Below, piece after piece: positions 8,343 through 46,173 of a stretch of DNA of 64,000 nt (position 1 is its first letter; every line of letters starts with the position of its first letter). The stretch is from a virus. The DNA is taken from the UHGV virus genome UHGV-0174779. The stretch is one strand, 5' to 3'. The translations under genes were made by a program, and so were the position numbers. The notes under the pieces were generated by a model. It was given only the letters and a program-made list of their open reading frames with translations. It was not told where the DNA came from and did no database searches.

Positions 8343-9884
8343 TTAGTAGCTCTGATTCCATCTGCTTACGTTTGCCTCATACAAAGAAGCGCTTCCGTAG
8401 CTAACATCATGCTTAGAGCGACCACGATGTGTAACAGAGCACGCTGAATAGCGCATTGCATCCATTAAGTCATCATGTTCTTTAATAATCTTACCAACCT
8501 TACGGTGATATCTAGCTTTCTCTTCGAATAGCTTAGCGTTAGCGGCTGTGTTAAAGATTTTAAAGCGTCCACTCATCATTCTTTCACGGATATCTGTGAT
8601 TCCCGGTTCTACAAAGAAGTTCTTTTTACCATCCATTCCAATTTTGTTGTAGAAGGTATCACTCTGTACGTTAACTCCTGCATTCTTATAGAATTGAGCA
8701 ACAGATGAACCACTACCTTTCTCAATATTGTCCGCATCATGCGGTAGGATGACAGGAATCCACTGACCACGACCATTAATAGCTGGAGCATGATACACTG
8801 GAGTAAAGCCACCTTCTTTATATGAGTCGTAAACATAGATAGTATCCGTGTTTGCGTCGTAAGCTGTCCAAACAGCAGCAGTTGGGTGATCAATACCAAT
8901 ATCAATTGCACAGACACGTTTCCACGTATCAGGAATTTCGAATGGTTCACATTTAATTGTGTCATCCGATACATCGTAAATCAAACCACTTCCTAACAAT
9001 GGCATACCTTTTGAACGCATCTCTAATTGCCACGCTGGAATACCTTCAGTCATATCTTTTATATCTTGGTCAGTGATATGTCCACCTAGGTCTGCATGAG
9101 CATCCCACCAAGAAGCATTCTGGAAATATAGAGAACCTGTGTTCTCATCTCCTTCACCTTTCATAAATTTATCTACCAGTTCAGTTAAACCGTTCTCTGG
9201 TGTAGCTGTAATTGTAACTAGACCTTTAGTTGTGAGTGTACGTGTGACGCACTGTGCGAATATAGCCATAGACTCGTATGGATCTTCTTCGTCTAACCAA
9301 ATGTAATCAACTGTTGCACCCATCAATGTGTGTTCACCCTGTTGGGTTGAACGGAATTCTAATGTACTTAAACCGTCAAACTCTCCTCTCTCATTTTGAT
9401 GTTTGATTTGTACGATTTGAAGTTTGTTACCATCTCGTTCTATCGTATCAATGACGATAGCATCACGAGGAATGACACCTGTCCCTAATAAATTTGTATC
9501 CTTTCCGATAGGTGTACCAAACAATTCCTTTTGCAATACTTTCCTTGTGGAATCCCCTGTAATACCAACTGCCCATGCTAAGATAGGTCTTTTAAATTTA
9601 TATCCTGTCCACCAAGTTGGGTAGCGACCTGTGACATGACAAGCAAACTCGTATGCCTCGCTATAAGATTTACCAACACGGTTCGCTGCACACAAGAATC
9701 TAAAGCGATGCTTCAATCCTGCTGCATAAAATTTCTTTTGGAAGTCATACGCCTTGAAAGACAAAATCCTATTATACTTCCTCCATTGGTCACGCTCTTT
9801 CAACATATTCAATAGTGCTTTCTTTTCATCTACACTAAGGTTGTTACCAGTTAGAGCTTCATAAATTTGTTTATCTAATGACAT
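8343..9884 (-). CDS. Terminase large subunit
   Basis: 513 aa; ATPase Walker A-like AANRVGKS, Walker B-like DYIWLDEED, C-terminal nuclease region CAIDIGIDHPTAAV. Confidence 0.85.
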   Translation of the reverse strand: MSLDKQIYEALTGNNLSVDEKKALLNMLKERDQWRKYNRILSFKAYDFQKKFYAAGLKHRFRFLCAANRVGKSYSEAYEFACHVTGRYPTWWTGYKFKRPILAWAVGITGDSTRKVLQKELFGTPIGKDTNLLGTGVIPRDAIVIDTIERDGNKLQIVQIKHQNERGEFDGLSTLEFRSTQQGEHTLMGATVDYIWLDEEDPYESMAIFAQCVTRTLTTKGLVTITATPENGLTELVDKFMKGEGDENTGSLYFQNASWWDAHADLGGHITDQDIKDMTEGIPAWQLEMRSKGMPLLGSGLIYDVSDDTIKCEPFEIPDTWKRVCAIDIGIDHPTAAVWTAYDANTDTIYVYDSYKEGGFTPVYHAPAINGRGQWIPVILPHDADNIEKGSGSSVAQFYKNAGVNVQSDTFYNKIGMDGKKNFFVEPGITDIRERMMSGRFKIFNTAANAKLFEEKARYHRKVGKIIKEHDDLMDAMRYSACSVTHRGRSKHDVSYGSASLYEANVSRWNQSY

Positions 9885-12640: not shown

Positions 12641-12669
12641 TTGACATGTTAGGTAGTAAGAAATATATT
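12641..12669 (+). promoter_or_regulatory. Sigma70-type promoter (TTGACA-N17-TATATT)
   Basis: Consensus -35 at 12641-12646 and -10 at 12664-12669, about 40 nt upstream of gene 12711. Confidence 0.5.
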
Positions 12670-13257: not shown

Positions 13258-13587
13258 ATGAAAACTCTGATTGCATCTGCTCTTTTATCTGTAGCTGTTC
13301 TCTCAACTGTAGGATGCTCTTCTTCTCCGCGTCCCAATGGTTGGTGTGCTCTGGAAGTTGAGGGCACTTGTGTGATGCGTTGGAAAGATGGTGTTAAGGT
13401 TCCTGCTGGTGAGATTGATATGAAGTACGAAGGTGCTAGTTGCTCTAATGGTGGATCTGTTGATGAGAAGGCCTATCGTGAGCGTGATATGAAAACACAA
13501 GCTGATTGGAAGAAGTCAGACTTTATTTCCCGAGCAACTCATTGCGGTGGCAACACTTCCACTAAGGGTAAAGAATGGGACATTTAA
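13258..13587 (+). CDS. Lipoprotein (paralog of 21232-21528)
   Basis: 109 aa; lipobox LSTVGC; RPNGWCALEVEGTCVMRWKDGVKVPAGEIDM shared almost residue-for-residue with the ORF at 21232. Confidence 0.65.
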   Translation: MKTLIASALLSVAVLSTVGCSSSPRPNGWCALEVEGTCVMRWKDGVKVPAGEIDMKYEGASCSNGGSVDEKAYRERDMKTQADWKKSDFISRATHCGGNTSTKGKEWDI

Positions 13588-13684
13588 AAAGAAGGGTTTG
13601 TAATACCAGTTCTACTTTGTTATCTTTGATTTTCACGGTGATTGCTACTGCAATTGCTTACTATTTCTTAATTGTTTTGGGAGT

Positions 13685-13957
13685 GTGATACCAATGGGTA
13701 ATGAAACTATTGCGCTGATTGATACGCATAATTACGGTGGCGTTACGCTCTCCTTTGATGAGTCAATCGACTATGCTTATTTGTCTTTTCTTACGAAAGG
13801 TGAGATAAAAACCATTAGCTTTCCTGCGGTCTATTTAGTGCAAGATTATCTCACTATTGGGAAGTATTTAGCTCAACGTGGGATTCTTCTATCGCTGGAA
13901 GAAGTGGAACAGATCAGTATAGCATTTTTTGTCGAGGGTAGTAATGAAGAAGAGTGA
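13685..13957 (+). CDS. Hypothetical protein
   Basis: 90 aa ORF, GTG or ATG (13694) start. Confidence 0.45.
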   Translation: MIPMGNETIALIDTHNYGGVTLSFDESIDYAYLSFLTKGEIKTISFPAVYLVQDYLTIGKYLAQRGILLSLEEVEQISIAFFVEGSNEEE

Positions 13958-14051
13958 TTATTTTTGGCGGTGCTTATTCGTTGTTACAGTGGCGTTATTT
14001 GTCTCTGATATGCTTTATTCTTACGTTTTATAACTATAGGTGACTATTATC

Positions 14052-14417
14052 ATGGGTGTTATCAAGTTTGTAGTGAAAGTGATTGTAGGCTTCTTTCTGG
14101 TTGTTCTTCTGTTAGGTGTCCTGCTGTCGTCTATTGGTAGTGTAAAGGCTGCAACGTTCACGCCTGATACTATCGAAGGCTTGCAATGCACCTATCTTAT
14201 AGAAGATTATGAAACTGGTAAAAAGTCACCTAAGGTTATTATTTTACATGTAGAAGATTTTGAGAGTGTCATAACCTACGACAAGTCTATCCACATGACT
14301 AACGAAACCACTGGTAAGCAAATTACGGTCGATCACTTGCTGCGCTCGTCGTTGACGCTCTTTGATGAATCTATGAACGAAATAAAATCCGGTAATGGTC
14401 AGTGTGTAAATCCATAG
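14052..14417 (+). CDS. Membrane protein (N-terminal transmembrane helix)
   Basis: ORF 14040..14417; ATG 14052 with AGGTGA 9 nt upstream; hydrophobic VIVGFFLVVLLLGVLLSSIG. Confidence 0.5.
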   Translation: MGVIKFVVKVIVGFFLVVLLLGVLLSSIGSVKAATFTPDTIEGLQCTYLIEDYETGKKSPKVIILHVEDFESVITYDKSIHMTNETTGKQITVDHLLRSSLTLFDESMNEIKSGNGQCVNP

Positions 14418-14493
14418 GCTTAATCTTTCTGCTGTATTGTGCCGTGGTCATGCCTATGGTCATAATTTATCTGATTCTCTAATCCTTCCTGTG

Positions 14494-14525
14494 AGCCTCC
14501 TAGTGAGGCTTTTCTCATTTCTAAG
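14494..14525 (+). terminator. Rho-independent terminator
   Basis: AGCCTC-ctagt-GAGGCT followed by TTTCTCATTT. Confidence 0.45.
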
Positions 14526-14776
14526 GCGATTGTATGCCTTACCCTCTTTTAGCTCGTTGTGATGCGTCTGAGAGCGTCAAATATTGCTTTACAAGCCTGT
14601 TCTAGTGTGTTATTCGCGTGCGCGTTCCTTTATATCTCTCCTCCCTGAAAATAATCAAAATAAAGGTTGCTTTCCTTCCTCACTTCCTCTATTATCTATT
14701 CATCGGTTAAGCAGTACCAAGTAGACAACCTGATAAGTCGTACGAAAAACAGGTAATCGATAAGAAATAAAAAAGA

Positions 14777-14805
14777 TTGACAAGATGCTCAAACGTAGTA
14801 AGATG
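14777..14805 (+). promoter_or_regulatory. Sigma70-type promoter (TTGACA-N16-TAAGAT) with A-rich upstream tract
   Basis: First of three tandem promoters in a 1.6 kb non-coding region. Confidence 0.5.
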
Positions 14806-14923
14806 GGTATCAGAAACAAAGCAAGGAAACTTGCAAATGCTCTTTAAAAACTTATCGTCCTGCCCTTTCGCAAAGATTCGCGCGAGATAAGGGAAAAGAA
14901 TAAAAAGAGGACGATAAAAAGAG

Positions 14924-14951
14924 TTGACAAGGTAATCTAATAAGTTATAAT
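14924..14951 (+). promoter_or_regulatory. Sigma70 consensus promoter (TTGACA-N16-TATAAT)
   Basis: Perfect -35 and -10 hexamers, preceded by aaaaagag A-tract. Confidence 0.6.
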
Positions 14952-15099
14952 GATTACCAGTTAGCAGATACACCGCTAACAAGTTCTTTAACAATATGAC
15001 CTGATTCACTAGCCGAGCCGCTTAGTAATCCTCAATCAAATATAGCTGATTGATATATCCTCCCAATAAAGGGAACGACGAAAAAGATTAAAAAGATGG

Positions 15100-15128
15100 T
15101 TGACAGGCGCTGAGAGATAGGTCATAAT
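15100..15128 (+). promoter_or_regulatory. Sigma70-type promoter (TTGACA-N17-CATAAT)
   Basis: Third tandem promoter, preceded by aaaaagatgg. Confidence 0.55.
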
Positions 15129-16051
15129 GAGCACATTAGCTAAGGGAAACATTCCGAAGCGAAGCGAGACAACGGCTAACAGTTGCATAGCGTGAGTAAA
15201 CATGCTGATAGATTTACCGCTCTTTAACAATTTAAACGTTCTTCTATATCGGTTGAACATGCTTGAAGATAATAACCATCGGAAAGTATGCCAGATAAAA
15301 CGGTGTAAGATTCTCTAAACTATCAGAGGAAACAATCTTGCAATCCCTTACTGGAAACGTCACCACTGACAAACGGATTCACTGAGTGCACGCAGAGACT
15401 TAAGCTAATCGCCCACGGTTAAGGGTAGCGGCGGTCATCGCTAACAAGGCGCTACAGTGAAAGAAGTTAATCAGGGTAGACAAGTCCGACGAATACAAGC
15501 TCAATTGCGAGCGGCGGGGAGCGGTTAAAAAGTGGCAAATTGCTATTTAACAATAAGGCTTAGTGTGAACGTTTACGATGTGAACGGCTTGAGATTCATC
15601 TTATGATGAAAGTACATAGTCGGTTTATGTAGTAAACTTGCCGAAAGATATAAAACGTCGGAACATTAGACGGTCAATGACTCTTTCGCAATAGTATCCC
15701 GTAGTGGGCGATGACTAGCGATTGAGAGTTGATACAAAAGGATAGGCGAGAGCGAAAACAAAGTAGACGATATTGCCGACGGTTACAATAAATGTAACTA
15801 ATTAGAGTCGGACGCACTGCCTTATTGTGATGATTGATCATCGCTATCAGGTCGGCTTAGTTTATAGCGACTAATTAAAGATACCAGATGAAACATCACG
15901 GATAAGGAGGCGGAAAGGTTAACTCCTGATAAGACCGCCTCACTTACCTGTAACTACTTAAAAAGTGAGTGGTTAGAGTTAAGTTAATAGTGACTTAAGC
16001 AAGCTCATAGAGAGCGGGGCATAGTGCCCTTACAATTGAAAGGTGAATATC

Positions 16052-16951
16052 ATGGCTAAAATCTTTACTCTGGTTAACGAATCTGGTTTTAACGCTCTGG
16101 CTAACAACATCCGCAGCAACAACGCAGCGATTAAGCAAGACGTATCTAACTTCCTGTTAGGGCACTTACAGCACTTCCGCAGCAACGGTAAGAAACTGGA
16201 CGTATTACAAGCGGCGGTTGATTTCCTGTTAACTGAACGCTTCCGCGATATGGATGTTATTGCTACCGCAATCACTTTCTTAACCCCTATCAAGTTTAAC
16301 ACCGATGCGGCAAATGGTCGTAAAAAGTGGATTAATCTGGAAGGTGAAGCGAAAGCTAAAGAAGATGCGAAAGAAGCGCAGATTAAAACCAAAATGGAGC
16401 AAAACCGCGCTCGCTGGTCAAACGCTTTCGAAAACTTTGCTTTAGGTCGTGCAATTGAAGTTGATAATCCTAACTTCTACAAAGGCTGTAACGACAACGT
16501 GGCGGCACACCTGCAAATCCCGGCGAAAAACAAGGAAGATTTTAACCAAGATATTTACGCTTTGGTTGAACGCTTGAACGCAATCCGCATTGAAGCCAAG
16601 TTGCTGGCTGATGAACGCAACGGCGCAACTAGTGATAACACTATTGCCTTAAGTGAAGAAGTTGGGAAGGTTAAGAAGTCTTTCGACTCACTCATCAAGA
16701 AAGTAACGGCCTCAACTGTAGCGATCTCTGATGACTATCTGATGAACGCATCAAGCAAGGAACTGGAATCACTTGATTCATATGCTGATGAAATGGAAAA
16801 GGCTGTTGCAGCTATGCAGGAGAAGTTAGAAAGTCTGCGCGGTCGTATCTCTTCAACGGTTGCTACCCGTACCGAACAAGCTGCGAAAGAAGAAGAGGAA
16901 GAAGTATTGCGTAAAGCGGCTGAAATTATGGCAGCACGTCAGGCAGCATAA
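16052..16951 (+). CDS. Early protein of unknown function
   Basis: ORF 16043..16951; ATG 16052 with AAAGGTGA RBS; 299 aa, helical, C-terminal EEEEE run; first long ORF after the promoter cluster. Confidence 0.6.
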   Translation: MAKIFTLVNESGFNALANNIRSNNAAIKQDVSNFLLGHLQHFRSNGKKLDVLQAAVDFLLTERFRDMDVIATAITFLTPIKFNTDAANGRKKWINLEGEAKAKEDAKEAQIKTKMEQNRARWSNAFENFALGRAIEVDNPNFYKGCNDNVAAHLQIPAKNKEDFNQDIYALVERLNAIRIEAKLLADERNGATSDNTIALSEEVGKVKKSFDSLIKKVTASTVAISDDYLMNASSKELESLDSYADEMEKAVAAMQEKLESLRGRISSTVATRTEQAAKEEEEEVLRKAAEIMAARQAA

Positions 16952-16973
16952 GTAAGACAATTTGAATAAACAT

Positions 16974-17010
16974 GAGGCGCTATCTTAACGGGTAGCGCCT
17001 TTTCTTTTAT
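16974..17010 (+). terminator. Rho-independent terminator
   Basis: AGGCGCTA-N10-TAGCGCCT followed by TTTCTTTTAT. Confidence 0.55.
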
Positions 17011-20590: not shown

Positions 20591-20696
20591 CGAGAGCTCT
20601 TAGTGAGGGTGTATCTTCCCCGCCTTCTAAGCGGTCGTTAAAGAAGTAAATGGAGTATGCAGGTTCGAGTCCTGTCACCCTCGCTAAGAGCTCTTG
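20591..20696 (+). other. Long inverted repeat forming a 21-bp stem that encloses a tRNA-like T-arm (candidate RNase III site or structured RNA)
   Basis: cgagagctcttagtgagggtg (20591-20611) pairs with caccctcgctaagagctcttg (20676-20696) with two G-U pairs; enclosed GGTTCGAGTCC matches the tRNA T-loop consensus. Confidence 0.4.
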
Positions 20697-44328: not shown

Positions 44329-46173
44329 GTGAGCAACCCGGACGCTCTTCCATTTTTGACAGAGATGACTGTCGCTGATATAATCTCTAAGCAAGCAAAG
44401 CACGGAGTGAGTTTCAACCGAAGAAATGCTCGGTGGTATGTTCACCTCCTTAAAGAGATTATTGTTAATATTGATAAAGAACTAATTCCTCTCTTACCTA
44501 AGATGAGATTAGACGGCTCTACTTATATGAAGCCGTTTAAGAAGTCTGGAGCTTTGCAGAAGTGGCCTCAAGCCTATTGTGATAGGGTTGGGCTGAAGAG
44601 GGAGGACATTGGTGGAGCTTTCACCTGTGTCGAATACGTAGACTTTGACCCATCGAAGGATGCACGAGTTAAAGAAGCTCTTATGGATGAGGGCTTTCTT
44701 CCTCCAGAGTTTAACGTATCTAAAAAGCCTTGGAATACTTTCGAAATTAAGAAAGATATGAGAAAGTATGGAACATACCAAGCATGGTATACTGCTTGGA
44801 TGCGAGGCAATGCTAAGCAAAAGCAGACAGCCGAGATGGTTGACGCTGATATAAAGAAATTCTTAGAAAAGCATTTTAGATTTAAGACTAAGAATTACAT
44901 GAAGGCTTACGTATTTGGTTTGGGATTAAACCCGAATCGCCGTAATCCTGTAACGTTTGATGAGATTAAGAAAGCACTAGCCACATCAAACAAGTGGCCT
45001 ACAGCTCCTACAAACCTCGAGGAGACTCTTGAAGAAGGGCTAGGGGGTGAGCTAGGGAGTGTTGGGAGTTTGCTTAAGAGACGCGTTGTAGCGGCTCACA
45101 GGCTAGGTCTTATCAGTGGACTTATAGCAAAGGAACGCGAAGATGGTAAACTTTCAGCAGAAGCTAACAGCTGCGCTACGCCGACTTTTCGATTCAAACA
45201 TCGTATCGTGGTTAATATTCCCTCCCGTGGTCTGTTTGGTCACGAGTGTCGCAGTTTGTTTGAGTCTGACTATAACTCAGACAGTGATCACTCTCGTCCT
45301 TTCGTTATTACTAACGTTGTTCCTGATGGTTGTTATATACGAAAAGGTACTAACGTAATTTACGAGAAAGGTAAGCCGGGGAAGAAAGACAAACCTGTAG
45401 GTGCTTACAAATATTACATACCCGCTGGTAAAGAAGTATTCTTAGGGTATGATGGTTCTGGGTTAGAGTTGCGTATGTTAGTGCACTATCTTGTGAAAGA
45501 GTGCCTTGACATGATGGAAGAAGCCAAAGCAGAGAACGATAAAATTAAGTATCTTAGGGCTGAGAAAGGCTTAGAGGCTGCTTATACTTATCGAGAGGTT
45601 CTTCTCTCAGGTGATATCCATTCCCACAATCAGAAACTAGCTGGCCTACCAACTAGAGATAATGCAAAAACTTTTATCTATGGATTTCTATATGGGGCAG
45701 GCGCAGCTAAGATTGGAGAGATTGTTGGAGGAGGTGCTCAAGAGGGTGAAATTCTCAGAGAACGTTTCTTAGCAGAATGCCCTTGTATCCCAATTGTCTT
45801 GGAGAGAGTACAAGCTCGTGCAGAAACAGGTACTCTTGAAGGTGTGGATGGTCGTAAGTTGACCATGAGACGGGATGCTACTGGTAAGGTTATGGTGCAT
45901 AAAGCCCTGAATACCCTACTCCAGAGTGCAGGTGCCATTGTCATGAAATACTCCATTTTGTTCACAAATAAATGGGTAGAGCAGCAGGGTATTAGAGGAA
46001 ATAAGGTGATTGACTATCATGATGAAGCACAGTGGTCTGTCAACCGTAACGACATTGATAAAATGAAAGAGATAGCTGAGACTTGTGTTAAAAAAGCAGG
46101 AGAATATCTAAACATGCACTGTGAATTAGCATCTGATTGTCAGATTGGATTAAATTGGATGCACACCCATTGA
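44329..46173 (+). CDS. DNA polymerase, polymerase subunit (family A, T7 gp5-like thumb/palm/fingers)
   Basis: 614 aa; motif A YDGSGLELRML, motif B RDNAKTFIYGFLYGAG, motif C DYHDEAQ; begins where T7 gp5 resumes after the exonuclease domain. Confidence 0.85.
   Translation: MSNPDALPFLTEMTVADIISKQAKHGVSFNRRNARWYVHLLKEIIVNIDKELIPLLPKMRLDGSTYMKPFKKSGALQKWPQAYCDRVGLKREDIGGAFTCVEYVDFDPSKDARVKEALMDEGFLPPEFNVSKKPWNTFEIKKDMRKYGTYQAWYTAWMRGNAKQKQTAEMVDADIKKFLEKHFRFKTKNYMKAYVFGLGLNPNRRNPVTFDEIKKALATSNKWPTAPTNLEETLEEGLGGELGSVGSLLKRRVVAAHRLGLISGLIAKEREDGKLSAEANSCATPTFRFKHRIVVNIPSRGLFGHECRSLFESDYNSDSDHSRPFVITNVVPDGCYIRKGTNVIYEKGKPGKKDKPVGAYKYYIPAGKEVFLGYDGSGLELRMLVHYLVKECLDMMEEAKAENDKIKYLRAEKGLEAAYTYREVLLSGDIHSHNQKLAGLPTRDNAKTFIYGFLYGAGAAKIGEIVGGGAQEGEILRERFLAECPCIPIVLERVQARAETGTLEGVDGRKLTMRRDATGKVMVHKALNTLLQSAGAIVMKYSILFTNKWVEQQGIRGNKVIDYHDEAQWSVNRNDIDKMKEIAETCVKKAGEYLNMHCELASDCQIGLNWMHTH

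Follow-up and report, generated by a model that had tools for sequence, protein, structure and literature searches.

The viral genome UHGV-0174779, analysed here as one stretch of 64,000 nucleotides (nt) and referred to as the window, carries at positions 14420-16042 a long non-coding region that ends directly before an early gene. In the direction of transcription, this region presents tandem sigma70 promoters with A-rich, UP-like tracts, each followed within ~25-85 nt by a small hairpin and a boxA element, then a structured RNA of ~800 nt and finally the first early gene. Matches to the region at 85-91% identity come from ~98 GenBank phage records, every one of them a phiEco32-like podophage of the Gordonclarkvirinae (genera Kuravirus, Suseptimavirus and Nieuwekanaalvirus), and the window is a phiEco32-like Kuravirus. 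In phiEco32, the counterpart is the gap between genes 125 and 124, located ~2.8-4.8 kb off the right genome end and transcribed inward. The gene that follows the region (16052-16951, 299 amino acids (aa)) encodes the homologue of phiEco32 gp124, which belongs to PHROG 13018 (function unknown) and lacks a Pfam family; its Shine-Dalgarno sequence and start codon lie at 16040-16054 on the + strand.

Three promoters, all on the + strand, were located by a promoter scan. P1 (14777-14804; TTGACA-16-TAAGAT, 10 of 12 consensus bases) has a predicted transcription start at ~14811, P2 (14924-14951) is a perfect TTGACA-16-TATAAT (12/12) with a start at ~14958, and P3 (15100-15128; TTGACA-17-CATAAT, 11/12) would start at ~15135. 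A-tracts precede them, and the segments directly upstream of P1, P2 and P3 contain 68-76% A+T, compared with 58% for the window. Sites with at least 10/12 matches number 16 over both strands of the whole window, and three of them fall inside these 350 bp. P3 is found in 27/27 related loci, with its -10 hexamer and flanking bases invariant. The three rightward promoters and their A-tracts had been proposed in a preliminary description of the region, which the scan bears out. In the SU10 genome paper, this spacer is likewise stated to contain three sigma70 promoters in SU10, "like phage phiEco32" (PMC4281155); hence, the promoters themselves are already known. Elsewhere in the window, a second perfect promoter (TTGACA-17-TATAAT) lies at 44356 (+), without an A-rich upstream tract and with no boxA noted nearby.

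The likeness to the early promoter clusters of T7, to which the preliminary description also drew attention, is real homology rather than mere resemblance, as judged from the alignment of the segment at 14719-14755 (+) with T7 552-588 (~95% identity, 34/36 aligned bases). The T7 segment directly abuts the -35 hexamer of promoter A2, and P1 and A2 have the same unusual -10 hexamer, TAAGAT. This homology is restricted to the P1 module and is carried by only some of the relatives, so that early-promoter modules appear to have been exchanged between T7-like phages and Kuraviruses.

Downstream of each of the three promoters, on the transcribed strand and within untranslated RNA, stands one perfect copy of boxA, which the preliminary description had missed. 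The sequence GYTCTTTAANA has been established as the functional boxA consensus for gamma-proteobacteria (PMC5725501), and it is matched without deviation by boxA1 (GCTCTTTAAAA, 14839-14849), boxA2 (GTTCTTTAACA, 14983-14993) and boxA3 (GCTCTTTAACAA, 15219-15230), all on the + strand and located ~+28, ~+25 and ~+84 from the predicted starts of P1, P2 and P3, respectively. The chance expectation for this consensus in the whole window is 0.65, against three promoter-linked matches; the sole other match in the window, at 8477, was rejected, as it lies antisense within a 513-aa gene. Together with its flank, boxA3 is identical to the Escherichia coli rrnB leader over 16 nt (GCTCTTTAACAATTTA), and the first boxA copy of phage SU7 is identical to rrnB over 18 nt. 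The resemblance extends to the elements around boxA. In the rrnB leader the order is a hairpin, then TGCTCTTTAACAATTTATCAG, then TGTGTGGG, and a small hairpin followed by boxA is common to the phage modules and rrnB. Thus, a hairpin with the sequence GCAAG-GAAA-CTTGC (14821-14834, +) ends 4 nt upstream of boxA1, in the position of boxB in rrn leaders; another (GTTAGC...GCTAAC, 14960-14980, +) lies 2 nt upstream of boxA2; and a third, AGCGTG-AGTAAA-CATGCT (15189-15206, +; helix 2 of the model described below), lies 12 nt upstream of boxA3. The latter covaries among relatives, with 3/6 pairs compensated and one pair represented by four pair types. In addition, boxA1 is followed by a long hairpin with a 10-bp outer stem (14852-14917, +), partly conserved in SU7, and the module that holds it folds with a minimum free energy (MFE) of -30.2 kcal/mol (z = -4.5). 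For NusB and NusE to bind, boxA should be single-stranded in the RNA; boxA2 and boxA3 are unpaired in the supported folds, but boxA1 is paired in the single-sequence MFE fold. Further downstream, a hairpin together with an invariant boxA-like variant occupies 15530-15553 (+; helices 17-18). The variant itself (GCTATTTAACAA, 15542-15553) has C4 changed to A, and C4 is a position at which mutation has been used to inactivate boxA (PMC5725501). Because of this change, and because it is predicted to be base-paired, this copy was rejected as a Nus site and is probably structural.

The same arrangement is found throughout the relatives. When the upstream regions of 27 distinct related loci were surveyed against 269 kb of flanking sequence, 105 perfect boxA copies were counted in the former versus 3 in the latter. 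All copies in the relatives lie on the transcribed strand, and 69 of 73 promoters have a boxA at most ~150 nt downstream, with 2 to 5 promoter-boxA modules per relative. The core positions are invariant in 104-105 of the 105 copies, and only the N of the consensus varies (A in 55, C in 35, T in 15). Moreover, bases outside the search pattern also match rrn, namely A12 (104/105) and T13 (94/105). boxA3 is invariant in 27/27 loci except at the N position. In many relatives, boxA is found at a fixed distance of ~47 nt upstream of the -35 hexamer of the next promoter; this spacing and the module number of 2 to 5 point to tandem duplication.

Other viral contigs, too, combine an rrn-type boxA with a consensus promoter. 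IMG/VR was scanned for GCTCTTTAA lying 20-50 nt downstream of a consensus sigma70 promoter, which returned at least 120 contigs; of the 119 matches analysed, 85 show a complete boxA at the promoter-proximal GCTCTTTAA site, versus 7.4 expected. The matches include apparent lambdoid nut sites (nutL-like) and T7-like leaders. This result hints that such pairing is common in phages, and in itself phage use of boxA is nothing new. The distinctive feature of the present region is the rrn-style layout, with multiple copies and apparently independent of N, together with a large new structured RNA.

Between P3 and the gene at 16052 there is a stretch of ~920 nt free of open reading frames (ORFs). In agreement with the preliminary description, which had recognised no credible ORF or start before 16052, no sense-strand ORF of at least 25 aa is common to at least 8 of the 22 relatives compared, and the Shine-Dalgarno sequence AAGGTG (16040-16045) precedes the ATG. 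The 403 variable columns of the leader are distributed without 3-nt periodicity (138/138/127). Hidden small proteins were therefore rejected, there being neither a conserved sense ORF nor codon periodicity, and the small-ORF annotations present in GenBank (e.g., SU7_114, and many in 101114BS3) are scattered and not conserved. The terminator scan found no intrinsic terminator between the leader RNA and gene 16052; as encoded, the RNA thus forms the 5′ portion of the early transcript. In composition the leader is rich in G and poor in C, and none of its local segments contains more C than G, for which reason it would be a poor substrate for Rho loading.

Despite its lack of coding capacity, the leader is under purifying selection, as judged from its divergence. 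Across relatives, the leader is 72-94% identical to that of the window, versus 51-82% at the third-codon positions of the adjacent gene, and in the divergent genera it is conserved above the whole of that gene (in SU7, 88% versus 75%).

The comparison of relatives further establishes, from covariation and a predicted fold, that the leader at ~15231-16030 is a two-domain structured RNA of ~800 nt. The 809 nt of the window fold with an MFE of -250.3 kcal/mol, compared with -197.2±4.5 kcal/mol for shuffled sequences (z = -11.9). For 27 distinct leaders aligned with MAFFT in a structure-blind manner (alignment A2), RNAalifold predicts 244 pairs; removal of the promoter and of two unsupported long-range helices leaves a model of 228 pairs, or 6154 cells. 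Of these cells, 99.4% are paired, versus 34-48% when partners are slid by 1-3 columns. The covariance analysis against related phages that had been suggested in the preliminary description gives 76 pairs with changes on both sides, versus 32.5±3.4 in shuffles (0/500) and 5-11 in slid models, with a covariation score of 0.228 versus 0.03-0.06 and several pairs represented by three to five pair types. Since RNAalifold had picked its pairs on the same alignment, the count was repeated on an MFE structure predicted from the sequence of the window by itself, which shares 178/228 pairs with the model and yields 68 compensated pairs versus 30.5±3.1 in shuffles (0/500) and 7-12 when slid. The pairing is also strand-specific: G·U pairs make up 9.9% of pair cells, and pairing reaches 99.4% in the sense orientation versus 89.7% in the antisense one, which indicates that the constraint acts on the sense RNA and not on the DNA.

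Domain I (15231-15529, +; helices 3-16) is a multi-helix domain closed by a long-range helix whose arms lie ~290 nt apart. Domain II (15550-15828, +; helices 18-28) is closed by a long-range stem of 22 pairs and includes a helix (columns 572-577/682-687) in which 6/6 pairs covary. Eight 3′ hairpins follow (15829-16030, +; helices 29-37), and those at 16003-16030 directly precede the ribosome-binding site. One of the eight is the GAGGCGG...CCGCCTC hairpin noted in the preliminary description, which proves real at 15907-15941, with compensatory substitutions in 5/7 pairs. RNAalifold further proposes that ATTTACC, just 5′ of boxA3, pairs with GGTGAAT at the ribosome-binding site; neither this pairing nor the other long-range closing helix, in the promoter region, was included in the model, since both are invariant and covariation therefore does not test them. 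A scan for pseudoknots and alternative helices gave five stacked candidates, all of which compete with modelled helices and were rejected. A 7-bp alternative pairing, CGGCUUG/CAGGUCG (columns 518-524/786-792 of A2, window ~15585-15591/~15848-15854), has one covarying pair and competes with two modelled helices; it may represent an alternative conformer or chance.

The RNA matches none of the families with which it was compared. No Rfam 15 family matched in a cmscan of positions 13500-17000 at E<=10 beyond three noise hits of 14-19 bits, and described families (including GOLLD, ROOL, introns, RNase P, tmRNA, 6S and ribosomal-protein leaders) were rejected for lack of a covariance-model match. 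At the gathering threshold, the whole window gave only a marginal tRNA match elsewhere. This match (20605-20683, +) scores 30.2 bits against a gathering score of 29, and ARAGORN makes no call there; a tRNA-Arg has been reported in these phages by the SU7 and SU10 papers. A host origin was rejected, as no similarity to E. coli was found among 5,426 complete genomes, and the core motif of domain II is absent from 185,579 GTDB genomes, while in IMG/VR it occurs in Kuravirus-type contigs only. Likewise, searches based on gp124 in IMG/VR, metagenomes and GenBank phages returned only Kuravirus-type loci, and nhmmer found no similarity to the Kuravirus RNA in stray 16-mer hits or in phage 7-11. One record with a Kuravirus-type leader and gp124, PP350014.1 (phage PH444, 114,913 bp, flagged UNVERIFIED_ORG; our locus L018), far exceeds the 68-79 kb of the other relatives and may be a chimeric assembly.

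The interpretation that we favour, with a probability of roughly 0.55, is that the region constitutes an early transcription unit built like a host rRNA operon, which makes a functional untranslated RNA by means of the host Nus factors. The clearest mechanistic clue is the rrn-type boxA after each promoter. According to established Nus-factor biology, each boxA would be recognised, as it emerges in the nascent transcript, by host NusB and NusE (S10), which along with NusA, NusG and SuhB would turn RNA polymerase into a Rho-resistant, fast and processive form, as on rRNA operons. Such a polymerase would allow an untranslated RNA of 0.9-1.3 kb to be made without premature Rho termination, and would probably also be carried on into the long early operon. 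The Nus complex has been proposed to keep the 5′ end of the transcript near the polymerase, thereby aiding the long-range folding of rRNA; more speculatively, a 5′ end tethered through boxA would suit an RNA with domains closed by helices 250-290 nt apart. The affinity of rrn-type BoxA for NusB:NusE (5-8 nM) is ten-fold tighter than that of lambda nut (80-90 nM) (PMC2800207), and BoxA shields other long untranslated RNAs, namely CRISPR arrays, from Rho (PMC7665894). With lower confidence, the RNA itself may be regarded as a functional product rather than a passive spacer, because it is the fold that is conserved, in the form of compensated helices and invariant loops and junctions. It would most likely bind a host or phage factor early in infection, be it released from the mRNA or not, although this is put forward with less assurance. 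Both the degree and the kind of conservation argue, with moderate confidence, for a specific RNA partner and function. As a whole, these results lend partial support to the interpretation of the preliminary description, which had suggested that the leader could encode abundant non-coding RNA or a processing or decoy element, and extend it substantially. The suggestion of a non-coding RNA is better supported than could be foreseen there, since a covariation-supported fold of ~800 nt in two domains under purifying selection exceeds the several hairpins pointed out there in the scale of its structure.

Several considerations weigh against this interpretation. It is drawn entirely from sequence and predicted fold. 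To our knowledge, rrn-type antitermination does not overcome intrinsic terminators, which makes its reach into the early operon uncertain. Phage 7-11, a distant relative from another family, has ~1.05 kb of non-coding DNA ahead of gene 151, the first of its early genes, at the right end of the genome (L049 3365-4417, minus strand), and thus a similar leader of ~1 kb without an E. coli-type boxA. On the side of the elements, the single-sequence fold has boxA1 paired with the A-tract downstream of it, and the ~47-nt spacing means that some boxA copies could double as, or instead be, DNA-level elements upstream of promoters. The leaders compared are related and mosaic sequences, so that there are fewer independent events than the counts of compensated cells suggest. 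Finally, no paper linking phiEco32 or Kuravirus with boxA was found in a literature that did not include Savalia 2008 and Pavlova 2012, so that an earlier description is possible.

A different account of the same data would make the RNA a purely cis-acting 5′ leader, without a partner of its own, that serves only the mRNA downstream: it might block Rho loading or RNase attack, control when or how strongly gene 16052 is translated, or act as a length spacer in transcription-driven genome entry. The absence of a terminator before gene 16052, by which the RNA is encoded as a 5′ untranslated region, fits this account, as do its Rho-averse composition and the comparable promoter-boxA-leader layout at the end of the T7 genome that enters the cell first. 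The proposed ATTTACC/GGTGAAT pairing could likewise gate translation, but its invariance means that covariation neither supports nor tests it. A role in stability or in shielding from Rho, however, would not call for ~230 specific pairs, for two closed domains of many helices each, or for long unpaired stretches that stay invariant across three genera, and in the divergent genera the leader is conserved above the gene that it precedes (SU7, 88% versus 75%). For these reasons we consider a purely cis-acting role rather unlikely, while still a serious contender.

Two further accounts place the function in the DNA. The boxA-like motifs might be DNA-level elements of a duplicated promoter module (e.g., an upstream activating or curved-DNA region), or might merely have been copied along with it, and not be Nus sites. 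The fixed ~47-nt spacing to the next -35 hexamer in many relatives and the module number of 2 to 5 are what such duplication would produce. But boxA3, with no promoter downstream, is invariant in 27/27 loci, and the single copy of T7 likewise lies after the last E. coli promoter. Only the position left free by the RNA consensus varies, A12 and T13 match rrn, all copies are on the transcribed strand, and the excess of full boxA at promoter-proximal GCTCTTTAA sites in IMG/VR (85/119 versus 7.4) points the same way, which makes this explanation very unlikely. Alternatively, the region as a whole might act mainly as DNA, for instance as an origin of replication activated by transcription, as a signal for packaging or ejection, or as an array of protein-binding sites, with the RNA structure being incidental. 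A long non-coding tract beside strong promoters, near the genome end in phiEco32, resembles the layout of some phage origins. Against this, compensatory changes keep pairing between segments up to ~290 nt apart, the 9.9% of G·U cells would turn into A·C mismatches in the opposite strand, which makes the signal specific to the sense transcript, and the fold is thermodynamically exceptional (z = -11.9); we regard a predominantly DNA-level role as extremely improbable.

The proposed rRNA-like transcription unit can be compared with several known systems. In the rrn operons of E. coli, promoters P1 and P2 with UP elements precede a boxB-boxA-boxC leader, and the antitermination complex rrnTAC acts on the transcription of a long structured untranslated RNA. 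With these operons it has in common the tandem strong sigma70 promoters with A-rich upstream tracts, the order of hairpin and boxA at ~+25 to +85 from the start, the identity of boxA to rrnB over 16-18 nt, and a product that is a long, G-rich, highly structured and untranslated RNA. The phage RNA is nevertheless unrelated to rRNA, showing no Rfam match and no similarity to E. coli. While rrn has one leader and one spacer copy of boxA, the phages have 3-5 perfect copies, one per promoter. They also lack a clear boxC, protein-coding early genes follow directly, and no flanking stem of the RNase III type is supported in the phage leader. The early region of T7 likewise combines three tandem rightward sigma70 promoters (A1/A2/A3) with a perfect rrn-type boxA and a first early gene, in addition to the 34/36-nt homology upstream of A2 and the -10 hexamer common to P1 and A2. 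However, T7 has a single boxA (~812-825), located after the last promoter, and its leader from A3 to gene 0.3 spans only ~170 nt, without an ~800-nt structured RNA. T7 also has an RNase III processing site, R0.3, between its leader and gene 0.3; in the window, the hairpins at 16003-16030 lie just ahead of the ribosome-binding site.

As in the lambda nut sites, where boxA and boxB act with the N protein, a boxA on an early phage transcript would recruit host Nus factors. Unlike in lambda, in which boxA precedes boxB, the hairpin precedes boxA in the phage modules, and the phage boxA is of the high-affinity rrn form, whereas that of lambda is weaker. No boxB, i.e., a 5-bp stem with a GNRA-like pentaloop (GAAAA or GAAGA), was found after boxA, where only the long 10-bp hairpin or the large domains occur. 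With the hairpin on the opposite side and no boxB, these elements are not nut sites of the lambda type. No N-like, arginine-rich antiterminator protein was detected with Pfam and PHROGs among the first early protein and a few neighbours, no systematic search having been made. A further parallel is offered by CRISPR arrays protected by BoxA (Stringer et al. 2020, PMC7665894) and by the suhB leader (Baniulyte et al. 2017, PMC5725501). In both, a boxA of the same consensus directly precedes a transcript that is untranslated over an unusual length and that Rho would otherwise target; these, however, are cellular loci with a single boxA, while here a lytic phage places boxA behind each of several consensus promoters. 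Regarding the RNA, GOLLD, ROOL and other large bacterial non-coding RNAs are also several hundred nt in length, with a multi-domain covarying fold, a phage context and unknown function. The Kuravirus RNA differs in having no Rfam 15 match at E<=10 and in lying at the 5′ end of the early operon of a virulent coliphage, with rrn-type expression signals.

A more far-reaching proposal is that the ~800-nt RNA represents a new class of large structured phage RNA, made by hijacking the transcription and folding machinery of host rRNA (boxA and Nus factors) and acting in trans in host takeover. We offer this as a tentative and rather doubtful suggestion. Such an RNA could serve as a sponge for Nus factors or ribosomal proteins, starving host rRNA synthesis, or it could inhibit a defence system that senses RNA or is guided by it, or act as a decoy for such a system. 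The second of these options would fit the broad resistance of Gordonclarkvirinae to the tested defence systems that has been reported (PMC11990801).

On its upstream side, the region is bordered by a mini-operon whose last ORF ends at 14417 and which is closed by four terminator-like hairpins found in a hairpin scan (14441-14579, +). The best of these, at 14493-14511, consists of GAGCCTC..GAGGCTT and then a T-run, which is in line with a terminator that has been described after the homologous gene of SU10 (PMC4281155). The short operon ending at these hairpins also has near-consensus promoters (10-11/12) at 12641, 12964 and 13194 (+). Its last ORF, 14040-14417 (phi32_125 in phiEco32, L001 2459-2824), encodes a product of 121-125 aa labelled 'terminase' in RefSeq and in PHROG 13168; the product has a hydrophobic, signal-peptide-like start and is much too small for a terminase. 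The labels 'polymerase' and 'tail protein' given to adjoining tiny ORFs look like annotation artefacts too.

In summary, the boxA cassette after every promoter and the large structured leader RNA both appear to be new, neither being described, as it seems, in the literature that was searched. RNAs of several hundred nt with strong covariation and no known function are rare, and, because the phage is a virulent one of E. coli, easy to grow and engineer, the role of this RNA can be tested directly. How early transcription in this phage group extends over long operons has been raised as a question, and according to the 7-11 paper an antitermination strategy "remains to be defined". If the interpretation given here is true, Kuraviruses borrow the antitermination complex of host rRNA operons without an adaptor like lambda N, which suggests how early transcription reaches far into long operons, and the boxA of T7, long noticed and unexplained, may belong to the same strategy.

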